Assembly (NCBI GenBank): GCA_016206155.1
Contig: JACQSC010000002.1
Coordinates: forward strand, 143,473 to 207,472
DNA length: 64,000 nucleotides
DNA from: Candidatus Uhrbacteria bacterium
GTDB taxonomy: Bacteria; Patescibacteriota; Patescibacteriia; JACQRZ01
Direction: 5' to 3'
How positions within the stretch are numbered: the first letter of the stretch is position 1; each line of letters opens with the position of its first letter. The translations under genes were made by a program, and so were the position numbers. The notes under the pieces were generated by a model that did no database searches, was not told where the DNA came from, and saw only the letters and a program-made list of their open reading frames with translations. This document shows, in pieces, positions 51,362-59,918 of this stretch.

Positions 51362-52361
51362 GAATCAAGAATTAAGAATTGAGACACCTGTGATAGCGAT
51401 CATTGGGCCGACGTCATCGGGGAAGTCGGATCTCGCTATTAAACTTGCAAAAAAGTTTAACGGCGTGATTATTTCTGCTGACTCACGCCAGATATACAGG
51501 GGGCTCGATATATGTACTGGAAAAATCACAAAGAAGGAGCAGAAAATGGTTAAACACCATTGCCTTGATATTGTCGCGCCGCCAAAGCGGTGGAGGGGCG
51601 GTGTACAGCCCTTTACGCTTGCAGATTATAGAACATGCGCTGATCGCGCGATTCAGGACATTCGCAGCAGGGGGCATGTGCCATTTATTGTCGGCGGCAC
51701 CCATCTGTATGTTCGGGCGGTTCTCTACGATTATGATATTCCGAGTGTACCACCCAACCATGAATACAGAATGAGGCTGGAGAAAAAGTCACTTGCCGCG
51801 CTCCAGCGACAATTATACAAAATTGATCCTGCGATGCGGGTATGGAAAGATCGCGATAATAAACGGCGTGTTTTGCGTGCGCTGGAAATTTATCGTGCAA
51901 CAAAGAGGAAGCCGTCGTTGGTGTATTCAAACCCTACGCTTCGTCCACGATACAACGCGCTTCAACTTTGCGTTGACGTTCCGCGAGAGACGCTTTATAA
52001 ACGAATTGACAAGCGGGTTGATGATCGGATAAAAGGGGGGATGATTCGTGAGGTGGAGCGACTGCGAGAAAGGGGTGTGTCCAAACAATGGCTCAGGAGC
52101 TTAGGTCTTGAGTGTCGATTTATTTCAAACTATCTTGATGGAAAAAAAACAAAAAAACGGAAGGATGATATGATCGAGCGGCTCAAATTTGCCATTCATC
52201 ACTATGCGCGTCGCCAACTCACCTGGTATCGAAAGCAAAATGACATTACATACGTAACGTCATATTCGTCTGCTCAAAACAATATTAAGCTGTTTCTCAC
52301 ATCAATAGGGACTGGATCCCCCAGGCCTAAAGGCCGGGCAAGCTACCCTTCGGCGGGATGA
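51339..52361 (+). CDS. miaA: tRNA dimethylallyltransferase
   Basis: P-loop IAIIGPTSSGKSDLAIKLA...ISADSRQIYRGLDICTGKI. Overlaps miaB by 23 nt. The overlap contains a 14-nt tandem repeat. Confidence 0.85.
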   Translation: MEAESRIKNQELRIETPVIAIIGPTSSGKSDLAIKLAKKFNGVIISADSRQIYRGLDICTGKITKKEQKMVKHHCLDIVAPPKRWRGGVQPFTLADYRTCADRAIQDIRSRGHVPFIVGGTHLYVRAVLYDYDIPSVPPNHEYRMRLEKKSLAALQRQLYKIDPAMRVWKDRDNKRRVLRALEIYRATKRKPSLVYSNPTLRPRYNALQLCVDVPRETLYKRIDKRVDDRIKGGMIREVERLRERGVSKQWLRSLGLECRFISNYLDGKKTKKRKDDMIERLKFAIHHYARRQLTWYRKQNDITYVTSYSSAQNNIKLFLTSIGTGSPRPKGRASYPSAG

Positions 52362-52368
52362 CAGCTGA

Positions 52369-54033
52369 TCAAATGACTTCCGCTTGATAGCACTCAACGC
52401 AATACACGATCTCCGGGCGGTTGGGTGCGAATGTCGTACGAATATCCTTAGAACACTTTACACACGAACGCTCAAAGAGCTTCATCGGTCCACGTCGCTT
52501 AATCCTATCAACATGTCGGCAGCTAAAGCATTGCCGAGGAATTGGAAGCGACATATTTTGATAAAATGCCAATTCTTTCGGTGTAATCTTATAATTTCGC
52601 TTGCAGTCAAGGCATGCAAGGACATCCTTCGTGATTGTACTGGTAACCTGCACGATGTGGTCGGGGATAGATTCGGGAGCAAGCGTTTCTGCACCCACTG
52701 TCATCGGTAGCTTATCCTGCCATCGATACCCTTGAGCAAGCGCTTCCTCCTTGGTCAGGGGCATGTAGTCCTGCGCCACGGCTTCATTGTAGGAAAAAGG
52801 TGCAATAACGGGCGGAAAAAACAATCCATACTCACCGTCACGTTTCAACTCATCAATGATTTTCTCGCGAAGTGCGTGATACTCTTTTTCACTGTACTCT
52901 CTGTTAAGAATACAGTATTTTCCCTTCTTTAGTCCGTCACAGCCAAAGCAGTATTCAGACGCATGGGTAAAAAAACAATACTCGCAATCATGGCCATTCT
53001 CTACCCAATACGATCCGATGACACGATTGGCATATCCGGTAGCTGCGCAGTCAAGAAGCAGTTCGCTTCCATATCCATAGCCAAGCGTATCGTAGGAATC
53101 CTTGATATTCTTGGACGCGAACATGTACTTGCAGTTCTCTCCTTCGGTAATCTCATAACAATCGCGCAGGGCCGTTGATGAGAAGAGGTAATCGCCGGTG
53201 CAGTCCTCTGACTTCATGTTGTTATTTTCTCGATGAGGAAATTGAAGGGCAAATTCCTCAAATTTTTTCCGCATTTCATTCAACTTCTGACAGCTTCCCT
53301 TAACTTCAGCAAGGCGCTTCTCATATTCATTCTTTGTCAGCTCCTCATTAAACCAGTGATAGCTCTTGTGGCGGAGGTTGACACAGCCAAAGCAGTTGAT
53401 GCAGTCAGTACAGCTTAACAAGAACCACGAATCAACGCAGTTGGTCACATTATGTCCAAATATAACGCCCGATGACTGATGAACATTCACTGCTTCATAG
53501 CAGCGCTCCATATCAATGCCAAAATATGCGTCAACCGTATCGCGACAGCGCATCAAGCCGCGAGAGTACATCGTATCCTCACAATAACTCGTATTGAAGA
53601 GGAGGTAACAATTTTTGTTATTCGCGGCGGTATTGGTGTAGTCGCTATTTATATTATTGCTGCCGCCGGTAATGCCCAACGCTTTTTTGGGGACACGTTT
53701 TAAGAGTTCGTCCATCTGTTCAAAGAATGGCCGATGAGAGTCATACGGGGTCCCATATTGAAAAGCATCCCAGTCGTCGGCATCAAAGCAGTCAAGACAG
53801 TAGACTGTATAGGGCGACTCCTCGTGGTAGACAGAGATAATGCTCTTCTTGCACTTATCGCATGGGCGGCTATAGAGAATCCGCTCATTACGAAACTGCG
53901 CCCTGCGCTTAAAGCGGCAGTCAGGACACAACCGCGGTACGGGAACGCTCATTTTTTCGTAAAACTCAAGGTCCTCCGGTTCAATTGAGTATAACCTGTT
54001 ACAATTTTTGCATGTCATTTGCTGAGCTGTCAT
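52369..54033 (-). CDS. cysteine-rich protein with paired zinc-ribbon modules at both termini and Cys-repeat core (554 aa)
   Basis: N-terminus CKNC-x23-CPDC and CDKC-x17-CLDC. C-terminus CLDC-x23-CFSC and CVKC-x17-CVEC. The core has repeated C..C..C..C blocks (SCTDCINCFGC, DCEYCFF...YCFGCDG). Roughly 55 Cys in total. Confidence 0.7.
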   Translation of the reverse strand: MTAQQMTCKNCNRLYSIEPEDLEFYEKMSVPVPRLCPDCRFKRRAQFRNERILYSRPCDKCKKSIISVYHEESPYTVYCLDCFDADDWDAFQYGTPYDSHRPFFEQMDELLKRVPKKALGITGGSNNINSDYTNTAANNKNCYLLFNTSYCEDTMYSRGLMRCRDTVDAYFGIDMERCYEAVNVHQSSGVIFGHNVTNCVDSWFLLSCTDCINCFGCVNLRHKSYHWFNEELTKNEYEKRLAEVKGSCQKLNEMRKKFEEFALQFPHRENNNMKSEDCTGDYLFSSTALRDCYEITEGENCKYMFASKNIKDSYDTLGYGYGSELLLDCAATGYANRVIGSYWVENGHDCEYCFFTHASEYCFGCDGLKKGKYCILNREYSEKEYHALREKIIDELKRDGEYGLFFPPVIAPFSYNEAVAQDYMPLTKEEALAQGYRWQDKLPMTVGAETLAPESIPDHIVQVTSTITKDVLACLDCKRNYKITPKELAFYQNMSLPIPRQCFSCRHVDRIKRRGPMKLFERSCVKCSKDIRTTFAPNRPEIVYCVECYQAEVI

Positions 54034-54107
54034 AGAGACTGGATCCCGTCCGGAGTTTACCCCGAGTACTCCCGAGGGGCCGGGATGACAAATAAGGGCG
54101 TTGAAAA

Positions 54108-55628
54108 CTAGCTAAGGATTTTTTTGAGCTCGTCCCTAATAAGCTCCGGCTGGCCCTTGCCTTTTAGCTCTTTCATCACCTGGCCGACGAGGAACATGAT
54201 TGCGTTTTCTTTGCCCGCTTTGTAGTTTGCGACAGCGTCGGGGTTGGCGTCTACAATCTTCTGCGCCGTCTGTCCAATCAGTCCGGAGTCAGAAACCTGC
54301 TCGAGGCCCTGCTCCTTAATCATCTGCGCAGGATCAATGGCAGTCTTTAGCGAGTGCTCAAGTATCTCCTGTGCAGTTGTACTATTGATTTTGTCCTCTG
54401 CAATATACGCAATCAGCTGAGCCATATTTTCTGGCGTGAGCTTAGACTGGTCAATATACTGACCGGTTGATGCGAGAAGGCCCTGCAGCTTATTCACGGT
54501 CCACGCGGAAAGAAGCTTGTATGATTTTTCCTTAAACGCGTCATCGCAGCCAGAGAGGGCACAGAGCCATGCATCAAGTTCCGAACAGGCATTTTCAAAA
54601 AAAGATGCGAGCGCTCGATCATCGACAAGAATGCGCGCGTCATCCAACGATATGCCATATGTGCTAATCAGCCGCTGGCGCTTCTGTTGCGGCAATTCCG
54701 GCAACTCCGCGCGAATTTCATCAATTGCCTCATGCGAAAAGCGTAGGGGCGGAAGATCGGGTTCCGGGAAATAGCGATAATCATGCGCCTCCTCCTTCCA
54801 TCGCTGAACAATGGTTTTTTGATTTTGCTCATCCCAGCCCACGGTAATCTTGTAATTTCGCGTACGCACCTCGCCTCCCGCAGTCCACTCCTCCCTCAAG
54901 CGATTCCTTTCATACTCCAGCGCCCGCTCGACCGCGCGGAATGAGTTGAGGTTCTTTATTTCCGAAATTGCGCTTGATACCTCGGCGCCATCTTCTGTAG
55001 TTTGGATAGAAATATTCGCATCACAGCGAAGATGACCCTTTTCCATGTCAGCAGACGATATATCAAGATAACGCGCAAGAAGGCGCAGTTCTTGCAAAAA
55101 TATTTTCGCCTCAAGCGGTGTTTTAAAGTCCGGTTCAGTGACAATCTCTGCAAGGGGGGTTCCCGCACGATTAAAATCAACAAGGCTTACATCCGAGCCC
55201 GGCGCGTGCAGAAGCTTTGCCGCATCTTCCTCAAGATGAAGACGCCGAATGCGAATACGCGCGGTCGAGCGGGGGACATCACCCGGAATAGCAATGTCAA
55301 CATACCCGTGAATGCCCAAGGGCTGATCATATTGTGAAATTTGATATCCCTTTGGGAGATCTGGATAAAAGTAATTTTTGCGGTCAAACTTGCTTTCCTC
55401 GTTGATGGTACAGTTGAGGGCTAGTGACGCCTTTGCGCCCATGCGTACTGCCGCAGCATTCATAACCGGGAGGGTACCCGGATGGCCCATGCAAACAGGA
55501 CAGACGGTTGTGTTTGGCGATTCATTTTCACCCGCATTGGAGCAGCGACAAAACATTTTGCTTGCCGTCTTCAGCTGAACATGAATTTCAAGTCCAATGG
55601 TATATTCAAATGGCAGATTGGATGCCAT
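54108..55628 (-). CDS. gatB: Asp-tRNA(Asn)/Glu-tRNA(Gln) amidotransferase subunit B
   Basis: MASNLPFEYTIGLEIHVQL...CRCSN matches the GatB N-terminus. GatB/YqeY C-terminal domain present. Start at M19 of the track ORF. Confidence 0.9.
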   Translation of the reverse strand: MASNLPFEYTIGLEIHVQLKTASKMFCRCSNAGENESPNTTVCPVCMGHPGTLPVMNAAAVRMGAKASLALNCTINEESKFDRKNYFYPDLPKGYQISQYDQPLGIHGYVDIAIPGDVPRSTARIRIRRLHLEEDAAKLLHAPGSDVSLVDFNRAGTPLAEIVTEPDFKTPLEAKIFLQELRLLARYLDISSADMEKGHLRCDANISIQTTEDGAEVSSAISEIKNLNSFRAVERALEYERNRLREEWTAGGEVRTRNYKITVGWDEQNQKTIVQRWKEEAHDYRYFPEPDLPPLRFSHEAIDEIRAELPELPQQKRQRLISTYGISLDDARILVDDRALASFFENACSELDAWLCALSGCDDAFKEKSYKLLSAWTVNKLQGLLASTGQYIDQSKLTPENMAQLIAYIAEDKINSTTAQEILEHSLKTAIDPAQMIKEQGLEQVSDSGLIGQTAQKIVDANPDAVANYKAGKENAIMFLVGQVMKELKGKGQPELIRDELKKILS

Positions 55629-55641
55629 AAAAAGCATGCGG

Positions 55642-56328
55642 TTAGACAGTAATGCGGATGCCGGGGCCCATGGTCGTAGCAATGGTGATACCCCTTATAT
55701 AGCTTCCTTTCACGGCTGCGGGCCTGCTCTTTCGAAGAGTCTCAATAAACGCAGTATAGTTTTCTAGCAATTTTTCGATATCGAACGAGCGTCTGCCAAT
55801 CACCTGGTGGACAATACCGGAATCATCGTTTTTGAATGTTACTTTTCCGGCTTTGACTGCCGCAATTGCATCCTTTATGTTTTGCGTGACAGTATCATTT
55901 TTCGGGGAGGGCATTAGTCCTTTTGGTCCAAGCACTTTTGCAACACCGGCAAGATTTTTCATAATGTCGGGGGTCGCAATTGCGATATCAAAATCACATC
56001 GACCAGTTGTTTTAATCTCCGCAATCAATTCCGGTCCGCCGACAATATCCGCACCCGCTTCACTGGCCTCGGTTGCCTTCTCTCCTTCGGCAAAAACAGC
56101 GACCCTCTTGGTTTTTCCGGTACCATGAGGAAGTGTCACGCTCGCACGAATAATTTGATCGCCCTTCTTGGGGTCAATACCCGTGCGAACATGAACCTCG
56201 ATCGACGCATCAAAATTTTCATACGAGAGCTTTTGGGCGAGTTCTAATGCCTCGCGAGGCTGGTACGCGGTGTTTTTTAAATCAAGCGATGCAAGCTTTG
56301 ATTGAAATGGTGCTGACTGCTTTCTCAT
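55642..56328 (-). CDS. rplA: 50S ribosomal protein L1
   Basis: GTGKTKRVAVFAEGEKA...GRCDFDIAIATPD...KAGKVTFKND matches L1. Start at M13 of the track ORF. Confidence 0.9.
   Translation of the reverse strand: MRKQSAPFQSKLASLDLKNTAYQPREALELAQKLSYENFDASIEVHVRTGIDPKKGDQIIRASVTLPHGTGKTKRVAVFAEGEKATEASEAGADIVGGPELIAEIKTTGRCDFDIAIATPDIMKNLAGVAKVLGPKGLMPSPKNDTVTQNIKDAIAAVKAGKVTFKNDDSGIVHQVIGRRSFDIEKLLENYTAFIETLRKSRPAAVKGSYIRGITIATTMGPGIRITV

Positions 56329-57893: not shown

Positions 57894-59918
<2,025 letters not shown>

Follow-up and report, generated by a model that had tools for sequence, protein, structure and literature searches.

A multi-zinc protein family of Patescibacteria as a candidate partner of soluble VirD4/HerA-type ATPases, and the unrelated hairpin repeats beside one of its genes in Candidatus Uhrbacteria

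In a 64-kb stretch of a Candidatus Uhrbacteria genome (contig JACQSC010000002.1; the whole stretch is hereafter called the window), we analyzed a gene between gatB and miaA that encodes a cysteine-rich protein of 554 amino acids (aa), together with the short repeats on either side of it. The gene is chromosomal and vertically inherited, and its product, here called the multi-zinc protein, belongs to a large family whose members in other Patescibacteria are frequently encoded next to soluble ATPases of the VirD4/HerA type. On balance, and with moderate confidence, we favor the view that the gene is vertically inherited, that its product would act as a scaffold or adaptor with such ATPases, and that the flanking repeats are unrelated to it; our confidence in the mechanism taken by itself is low.

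Much of bacterial diversity belongs to the Patescibacteria, and most of their conserved genes are without a known role; the family described here is both large and strongly conserved. Its sequences are already public as "hypothetical protein", and, as far as the searched libraries and literature show, its architecture, its arrays and its link to ATPases are new.

Architecture and extent of the multi-zinc protein family

The coding sequence occupies 52369..54033 on the minus strand of the window in the open reading frame (ORF) list, and its product contains 35 Cys residues; a first-pass annotation of this stretch, which had singled out an unusual Cys-rich protein of 554 aa, was right on this point. 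The public record for the gene is the Candidatus Uhrbacteria "hypothetical protein HY623_01545" of 527 aa, a model that begins at M28 and drops the region 53953-54033, including the first zinc knuckle (C8/C11). Nearly all homologues are 550-560 aa long, and those of 551-558 aa cover 99-100% of the query. Since C8/C11 is invariant in the 49 aligned orthologues and orthologues align from residue 1, M1 is, judging from the alignment, likely to be a better start than M28.

Both ends of the protein carry a double zinc-finger module, the N-terminal one at residues 4-85 (53779..54024, minus strand; putative ligands C8/C11/C36/C39 and C58/C61/C79/C82) and the C-terminal one at residues 470-551 (52381..52626, minus strand; putative ligands C474/C477/C502/C505 and C524/C527/C545/C548). 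The mirrored arrangement of N- and C-terminal Cys modules, proposed earlier, was confirmed by two comparisons: residues 4-85 and 470-551 are homologous, with 36% identity and an E value of 1.9e-16, when the protein is searched against the window by tblastn, and family sub-alignments of the two modules match in hhalign with 39% identity, a probability of 99.9% and an E value of 2.1e-31. All 16 end-module Cys are invariant in the 49 orthologues, with two Cys4 sites per end, and these sixteen conserved residues predict four Cys4 zinc sites. In the full AlphaFold (AF2) model (predicted local distance difference test, pLDDT, 80.7; predicted template modelling score, pTM, 0.80) the end modules are placed at pLDDT 85-95 (85-91 for the N-terminal one), and each finger is modelled with its knuckle in a beta-hairpin and two further ligands at the N-terminus of a helix, which makes each site a predicted treble-clef finger. 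The modules had been described as zinc ribbons; the paired CxxC repeats are indeed there, and in the model each reads as a treble-clef finger. The C-terminal module is basic, with a net charge of +8 (family mean +5.4).

The second finger of each end has the spacing CxxC-x17-CxxC (C58-x2-C61-x17-C79-x2-C82 and C524-x2-C527-x17-C545-x2-C548), which is exactly that of zf_Tbcl_2 (PF23477), zf_Tbcl (PF13451) and TIGR04272 ("probable treble clef"). For the window protein, Pfam and NCBIfam returned only sub-threshold zinc-finger matches and no curated family: PF23477 scored 19.7 bits at residues 519-551 (E 6.7e-4), under its gathering cutoff of 27, and TIGR04272 (cxxc_cxxc_Mbark) scored 16.9 bits (E 0.004), under its curated cutoff of 36. 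Because PF23477 is matched at E<=1 by 47 of the 49 orthologues, with a best E of 3.7e-9, the end-module finger is very likely of this domain type as far as sequence can tell; the zf_Tbcl_2, zf_Tbcl and TIGR04272 models, themselves of unknown function, cover about 35 of the 554 residues. The end modules also resemble LIM domains, which are protein-protein docking modules, in having two tandem Cys4 fingers with similar ligand spacing, and weak matches were obtained to the LIM domains of CRP and PINCH (E 0.06-0.4 in the PDB) and to the Pfam LIM model (8 of 49 members, best E 0.019). They differ from LIM domains, however, in that the two fingers of a module stand 18 residues apart and are not contiguous, the first finger has a 24-residue, helix-bearing spacer, and no His ligand is present. 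Assignment to PF00412, whose consensus is the contiguous C-x2-C-x16-23-H-x2-C-x2-C-x2-C-x16-21-C-x2-(C/H/D), was rejected for the separation of the fingers, the missing His and the lack of a significant match.

The core is a second internal duplication besides that of the ends, to judge from the alignment of its halves (hhalign probability 99.9%, E 1.5e-33), which we designate core repeat 1 (residues 127-244; 53302..53655, minus strand) and core repeat 2 (residues 275-392; 52858..53211, minus strand). Each half closes with a C(F/x)GC motif and an "N..YS.EEY" helix, repeat 1 by way of CxxCxxCFGC (C208/C211/C214/C217) and repeat 2 by way of CFGC (C362/C365). The further four-Cys blocks reported in the core are present in the window protein and mostly unconserved across 387 family members: the only core positions at which 79% or more of the members have Cys are C142, C211, C214, C217, C365 and C374 (82% for C211, 97% for C214, 85% for C217 and 97% for C365), and relatives have Ser, Gly or Ala in place of most core Cys. 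G364 and N377 are conserved in at least 95% of the same members.

Core models were all-beta, and all 124 weak Foldseek matches of the core model in the PDB were beta-helix or solenoid proteins (best E 0.06, template modelling scores <=0.19), from which we infer that the core is probably a beta-solenoid. Its interior positions are short-period and rich in Cys and Ser, and the Cys/Ser/Gly/Ala swaps would fit small residues inside a narrow solenoid; the conserved C211/C214/C217/C365 could form one more metal site. The top weak match was a pentapeptide-repeat protein, and one paralogue gave a faint match to the Pfam AFP model; a difference from known beta-helix proteins, such as pentapeptide-repeat proteins, the insect antifreeze beta-helix and pectate-lyase-like helices, is that the core matches none of the Pfam repeat families. 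With a net charge of -16 (family mean -11.4) the core is acidic and in this resembles DNA-mimic solenoids such as the pentapeptide-repeat proteins MfpA and Qnr, an analogy on which a DNA-mimic role would be speculation. An acidic conserved linker follows at residues 401-465 (52639..52833, minus strand; net charge -6, isoelectric point 4.25), with the motifs YGLFFPP...PF(S/A)YNE...G(Y/F)RW...IPD and with G403, Y415, N416, E417, G435, W438, D458 and I460 invariant in the 49 orthologues. No membrane-like segment was found in the protein (maximum hydropathy 1.16). The layout as modelled is a double treble-clef module, two solenoid repeats, the acidic linker and a second double treble-clef module, all in a soluble protein.

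Searches at E<=1e-3 returned 4,234 homologues, with 52-60% identity across Patescibacteria classes, and an exhaustive HMMER search yielded 3,789 cluster representatives (50% identity) at E<=1e-3. At E<=1e-30 there were 1,520, and the ones listed are almost all full-length proteins of 530-600 aa. All named matches are a "hypothetical protein" from Patescibacteria lineages. The earlier statement that the protein cannot be placed in a known family holds after the Pfam and NCBIfam searches described above, a PDB sequence search with the family profile, which gave LIM-like noise and nothing significant, and Foldseek comparisons of the full and core models with the PDB, again with nothing significant. 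Among viral structures, Foldseek matched only generic small zinc-ribbon proteins (best E 0.003); no homologue was found in phage genomes (tblastn) or viral contigs, PADLOC had no match for the window protein, and a literature search on zinc-ribbon, beta-helix or candidate phyla radiation (CPR) proteins of this kind returned nothing relevant. One family member (P0179; 731 aa, on 3 contigs) has a fused N-terminal GNAT acetyltransferase domain; being a single case, this fusion was not used as a functional clue.

Paralogue arrays and neighboring ATPases

Genomic context was sampled in 90 loci totalling 983 kb, 80 of them from a metagenome scan and 10 from elsewhere, in which 222 family ORFs were found, about 190 of them full length. 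Two or more family copies were present in 59 of the 90 loci; among the 46 loci that span at least 10 kb, the number was 35. Tandem arrays reached eight genes, at about 1.7 kb each a heavy investment for small genomes. On orthologue contigs from other classes, neighboring ORFs of 545-596 aa without Pfam matches are full-length paralogues. Neighboring paralogues are 33-40% identical to the query over their full length, yet each is strongly conserved, which suggests non-redundant subunits or specificities. Clustering at 46% identity set apart from the other paralogues an orthogroup, "B", of 30 members that includes the window's protein; it is the most conserved orthogroup and has a single copy per locus.

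When all other ORFs of the sample were clustered, the most frequent neighbor was an ATPase, present in 28 loci, followed by phosphoglycerate kinase (10 loci), CutA1 (9), threonyl-tRNA synthetase (ThrRS; 7), DnaK (7) and PepA (6). Redundancy among the loci is minimal: at 90% identity they fall into 89 groups, and the ATPase is present in 27 of these. Thirty-six ATPase genes were counted, of which 21 adjoin a family gene and 8 lie two genes away (29 within two), 35 of them on the same strand; the gaps between adjacent ATPase and family genes are 2-186 nucleotides (nt). The neighbor ATPase scored above the Pfam cutoffs (in brackets) for TrwB_AAD_bind at 39.1 bits (20.5), DUF87 at 35.5 (23.2), T4SS-DNA_transf at 27.5 (20.1) and TraG-D_C at 24.4 (22), and these ATPases have a Walker A motif. 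They fall into two classes, a short one of 486-533 aa and a long one of 571-746 aa, in which the ATPase domain is followed by a CxxC-x17-CxxC finger (zf_Tbcl_2 at 49.6 bits). Of the 30 full-length ATPases, 29 lack any 19-residue window of hydropathy >=1.6, and hence a membrane anchor. The B gene directly follows a long ATPase gene in seven loci (L134, L136, L137, L139, L142, L146 and L165), and it often precedes a short one, as in L136.

The neighbor ATPases are akin to VirD4/TrwB and HerA/FtsK proteins in their TrwB/TraG-type NTPase domains and their Walker A motif, and differ from VirD4 in being soluble and in coming as a long/short pair. A typical CPR genome measures about 1 Mb. A survey of 2,918 CPR genomes recorded 5,713 VirD4-like genes, of which 148 lie near virB4 (bioRxiv 10.1101/2025.01.22.634366). 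In these genomes VirD4-like genes are thus mostly away from virB4, another difference from the classical coupling protein, and exaptation to another function "cannot be ruled out" according to the same survey, whose counts amount to about two such genes per CPR genome (bioRxiv 10.1101/2025.01.22.634366). Against this background, 36 ATPase genes per 983 kb would represent roughly 18-fold enrichment, a figure that depends on taking about 1 Mb as the typical genome size. The same-strand linkage described here offers a partner for ATPases that are abundant in CPR yet mostly unlinked to type IV secretion (bioRxiv 10.1101/2025.01.22.634366).

Two further features of these neighborhoods were recorded. 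Beside or inside the arrays, CutA1 recurs in 9 loci and an M17 leucyl aminopeptidase in 6 (L130, L132, L159, L134 and others), and an ORF of 183-211 aa without a Pfam match recurs in 5 loci, in one of which (L127) it lies inside the array.

Candidate functions of the multi-zinc protein

VirD4/HerA-class ATPases use dedicated adaptor or partner proteins, and we know of no ATPase adaptor that resembles this zinc-finger/solenoid family. We propose that the multi-zinc protein, stabilized by zinc, would serve soluble hexameric ATPases of the VirD4/HerA type as a scaffold or adaptor, its orthologues in other Patescibacteria being placed after the long, zinc-finger ATPase and before the short one. 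The protein would attach to the ATPase or to nucleic acid through its basic zinc-finger ends and present its acidic solenoid core as the working surface, and the paralogues would give different specificities or build a mixed assembly. The zinc-finger type common to the long ATPase and the family suggests a shared ligand or mutual docking. Between a nucleic-acid-binding and a redox protein, the two functions suggested in the first-pass annotation, the basic ends and the ATPase link lead us to lean towards a nucleic-acid or ATPase-docking role, and the conserved CxxCxxCxxC motif of the core is compatible with a possible redox or iron-sulfur (Fe-S) role.

Several observations weigh against this proposal. 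There is no VirD4/HerA-like ATPase in the 64-kb window, and four Uhrbacteria-type loci likewise have no ATPase beside the gene, so that the evidence for the partnership comes from other loci and not from this genome. The 80 metagenome loci were picked for their resemblance to the query and represent a limited number of samples, the enrichment depends on the genome size assumed above, and gene adjacency is no proof of physical interaction. With regard to the core, model confidence is low (pLDDT 53-70 within the full model, 65.8 when the core is modelled by itself), the solenoid call draws on Foldseek matches that are not significant, the best E being only 0.06, and remote homology to known beta-helix families is conceivable.

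A broader form of the proposal, which we regard as a tentative possibility, is that the family and its paired soluble ATPases constitute an undescribed cytoplasmic machine found throughout Patescibacteria, in which the single-copy B subunit would couple a mixed assembly of paralogous acidic solenoids to ATPase rings. The solenoids might act, for example, as DNA-like tracks or as adaptors handling scavenged nucleic acid. If true, such a machine would account for the function of the roughly two "orphan" coupling-protein homologues per CPR genome that lack linkage to type IV secretion genes.

It is unlikely that the protein is instead a stand-alone RNA-binding or translation-linked factor, for example one for tRNA or rRNA handling, to which ATPase adjacency is secondary. 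Such a factor would be in keeping with the place of the Uhrbacteria gene among gatB, miaA, miaB and thrS, with the proximity of homologues to pheST/metK, leuS, mnmA or aspS elsewhere, with ThrRS as a neighbor in 7 loci and aspartyl-tRNA synthetase (AspRS) in 6, with the basic zinc-finger ends, and with the very high conservation across classes (52-60% identity). The neighborhood is weak evidence, however, because Patescibacteria genomes are small and rich in translation genes, and no RNA-binding or enzyme domain was detected by Pfam or NCBIfam in the window protein, or in the 49 orthologues. In addition, arrays of up to eight paralogues would be unusual for a factor of this kind, and the ATPase is by far the stronger neighbor, with 28 loci against at most 10 for any other.

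The operon-like linkage to VirD4-type ATPases could also mean that family members are cargo, that is, effectors recognized by VirD4-like coupling proteins and exported by the type IV secretion system of Patescibacteria. Such secretion is widespread in these bacteria, with no known substrates, and the C-terminal module is Arg-rich and basic. We nevertheless judge this quite improbable: the neighbor ATPases lack a membrane anchor, VirD4-like genes are rarely found near virB4 (bioRxiv 10.1101/2025.01.22.634366), tightly zinc-folded domains would presumably make poor secretion substrates, and the family is strongly conserved, whereas effectors usually evolve fast.

A redox, Fe-S or metal-buffering protein with functional core Cys is improbable to a similar degree. 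The 35 Cys, the conserved CxxCxxCxxC motif at C208-C217 (with C211/C214/C217 at 82%/97%/85%), C365 at 97%, and the presence of the metal-tolerance protein CutA1 beside arrays in 9 loci would all agree with such a role, but most core Cys give way to Ser, Gly or Ala in relatives, and no ferredoxin, thioredoxin or radical-SAM model matches the window protein in Pfam or NCBIfam, or the 49 orthologues.

Membership in a HerA-type anti-phage defense system seems more doubtful again. The partner ATPases do match PADLOC models for mad8 (E 3.4e-15) and HerA, defense islands can contain multi-gene arrays, and an AbiE pair adjoins the gene in L002, but the multi-zinc protein itself has no PADLOC match and no nuclease or other effector domain. 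Its genes lie in housekeeping neighborhoods (rpoC-dnaG-rpoD, gatB, aminoacyl-tRNA synthetases), its orthogroups are strongly conserved across classes, and no homologue was found in phage genomes or viral contigs.

The gatB/miaA junction and the flanking hairpin repeat

In the window, gatB (54108..55682) lies directly upstream of the multi-zinc gene on the same strand, and the miaA ORF, which ends at 52361, is convergent with it; the gene had been placed on the opposite strand between miaA and gatB, which is true relative to miaA only, as gatB shares its strand. Orthologues occupy the same junction on three related contigs, L001 (87% identity), L003 (75%) and L004 (69%), in the shared order gyrB-secE-nusG-rplK-rplA-gatB-gene-miaA-miaB-thrS. 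An earlier suggestion that the gene was inserted, which its author would have given up had clear orthologues been found at this position in related genomes, does not survive this comparison, and the multi-zinc gene is a vertically inherited chromosomal gene of this Candidatus Uhrbacteria genome. Its position is not fixed in all Uhrbacteria-like genomes, since a 75%-identical relative in L002 (7776-8965) follows pheS-pheT-metK and precedes an AbiEii/AbiEi pair.

An 11-bp direct repeat bracketing the gene had been noted as well. This 11-mer, GACTGGATCCC, does exist and occurs exactly twice in the window, at 52310-52320 and 54037-54047; it had been given at 52309-52319 and 54048-54058, the second position being off by 11 nt. 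Taken alone the 11-mer is weak, at least two matches being found in 12 of 100 shuffles with one mismatch allowed. It proved to form one arm of a longer repeat, a hairpin of about 55 nt with the ends TGTCATCCCG...GGGATCCAG, conserved at its ends and variable in the middle, which reads ATAGrGACTGGATCCC, about 34 variable nt and sGGGATGACA on the plus strand and TGTCATCCCG, N33 and GGGATCCAGTCyCTAT on the gene's strand. One copy lies between gatB and the gene (54032..54090, minus strand; TGTCATCCCG, 33 nt, GGGATCCAGTCTCTAT) and includes the 11-mer at 54037-54047, and the other lies between the gene and miaA (52305..52363, minus strand; TGTCATCCCG, 33 nt, GGGATCCAGTCCCTAT) and includes that at 52310-52320. 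The two copies are 72% identical overall and differ in their interiors, and looser patterns revealed no further copy in the window.

Among the related loci the gene is constant and the hairpins vary. The window has a long copy at both the gatB/gene and the gene/miaA junctions; L001 has a short copy at the former and none at the latter; L003 has none at either, with gaps of 22 nt and 8 nt, respectively; and L004 has none at the former, where the gap is 8 nt, and one at the latter, where a 97-aa ORF also stands between the gene and miaA. The repeat is likewise not confined to this junction. In a scan of one genome per species, the pattern TGTCATCCCG-N5-35-GGGAWCCAG matched at least 120 stretches of genome sequence spread over many phyla, including, among the matches listed, Alphaproteobacteria, Rickettsia (L014, L022 and L070), Coxiellaceae, Saccharibacteria, Parcubacteria, Uhrbacteria, Omnitrophota, Zixibacteria and others. 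In the same set of listed matches, most copies take the form of a simple hairpin, for example TGTCATCCCGGGCTTGACCCGGGATCCAG, and the element ends in TGTCAT...CCAG across 147 instances. Copies are mostly intergenic and often cluster, with 2-4 per 8 kb in many loci, and the variable interior extends the stem by a mean of 1.81 extra pairs, as against 0.41 in shuffles (shuffle maximum 0.61). The 11-mers are therefore unrelated to the origin of the gene; they are arms of a hairpin repeat that is widespread and lodges between genes, and being part of so promiscuous an element they mark no cassette boundary.

That the gene arrived by insertion, as a cassette or mobile gene with these repeats as its boundaries (target-site duplications or recombination sites), is thus barely credible: the only two copies in the window do bracket precisely this gene in direct orientation, and a 20-nt inverted repeat joins both gene ends, but the gene stands at the same junction in L001, L003 and L004 with one copy on either side or none, the interiors of the window copies differ, the motif is widespread and usually clustered, no recombinase or transposase adjoins the gene in the window ORF list, and the family is a conserved, core-like one in Patescibacteria. 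Target-site duplication in particular was rejected from L003, which keeps the gene at the junction with no repeats. Integron attC sites are imperfect palindromes with the core sites RYYYAAC and GTTRRRY at their ends; an integron cassette was rejected, as the element here ends in TGTCATCCCG and GGGATCCAG and GTTRRRY occurs in neither copy.

As a short GC-rich hairpin with conserved arms that is multicopy, mostly intergenic and clustered, the repeat resembles repetitive extragenic palindromic (REP) elements and Rickettsia palindromic elements, and the extension of the miaA ORF by one copy has its like in the Rickettsia elements. The REP superfamilies carry a GTAG or CGTC tetranucleotide at one palindrome end (PMC3733652). 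The present hairpin ends in TGTCAT...CCAG and differs from REP elements so described in having no GTAG/CGTC tag (PMC3733652), in that no REP-associated tyrosine transposase (RAYT) was seen, and in its spread over many phyla, which is unusual for REP families. Rfam gave no match, either across the whole window at the gathering threshold or at E<=1 around the gene, and the two long window copies fold no better than shuffles in single-strand folding (z -0.5 to +0.3); a strongly folding structured RNA is therefore unsupported for the two long copies.

Several minor observations concern the hairpins and their surroundings. The miaA ORF of the window runs into the left copy (52305-52361), which supplies its last ~19 codons (IGTGSPRPKGRASYPSAG); its TGA stop falls within GGGATGACA, part of that copy, and similarity to the miaA 3' region of L001 is lost soon after the shared "NIK" residues. 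The 20-nt inverted repeat has its left arm (ATGACAGCTGATCAAATGAC) at 52358..52377, spanning the stop codon of the multi-zinc gene and the TGTCAT end of the left hairpin, and its right arm at 54014..54033, the first 20 nt of the coding sequence. The arms are 90% complementary, beyond plain chance (a rough estimate gives ~0.006 expected in the region); the inverted repeat is not found in L001 and has no evident role. Elsewhere, a gene for a 95-aa GIY-YIG nuclease, which we take to be YhbQ/COG2827-like, lies between inverted copies of the TGTCATCCCG...GGGAWCCAG hairpin in L001 (9156-9513) and L029 (3594-3954), an Uhrbacteria contig and a Rhodospirillaceae metagenome-assembled genome, with the hairpins 10 and 18 nt from the ends of the domain. 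In two more loci, L091 (near 5240) and L012 (near 7595), hairpins stand 43-72 nt from the GIY-YIG gene. The nuclease gene with its flanking hairpins may be an autonomous form of the repeat; an iterated GIY-YIG search added no members, and a literature search for a GIY-YIG link to such repeats returned nothing relevant.

The wider neighborhood differs in some details between the window and its relatives. L001 (2647-4428) and L004 (2587-4335) encode a paralogue of 593 aa and 582 aa, respectively, with 33% identity, between rplA and gatB, which is absent from the window, as is the ORF of 96 or 97 aa that L001 and L004 have between the gene and miaA. A tRNA scan of the window found no tRNA. The rplA and gatB ORFs listed for the window overlap around 55642-55682. 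Finally, the gyrB of the window (57894-59915) encodes an intein-free protein of 673 aa, and that of the 87%-related L001 (1-379) encodes one of 1,109 aa with an intein domain (PF14890).

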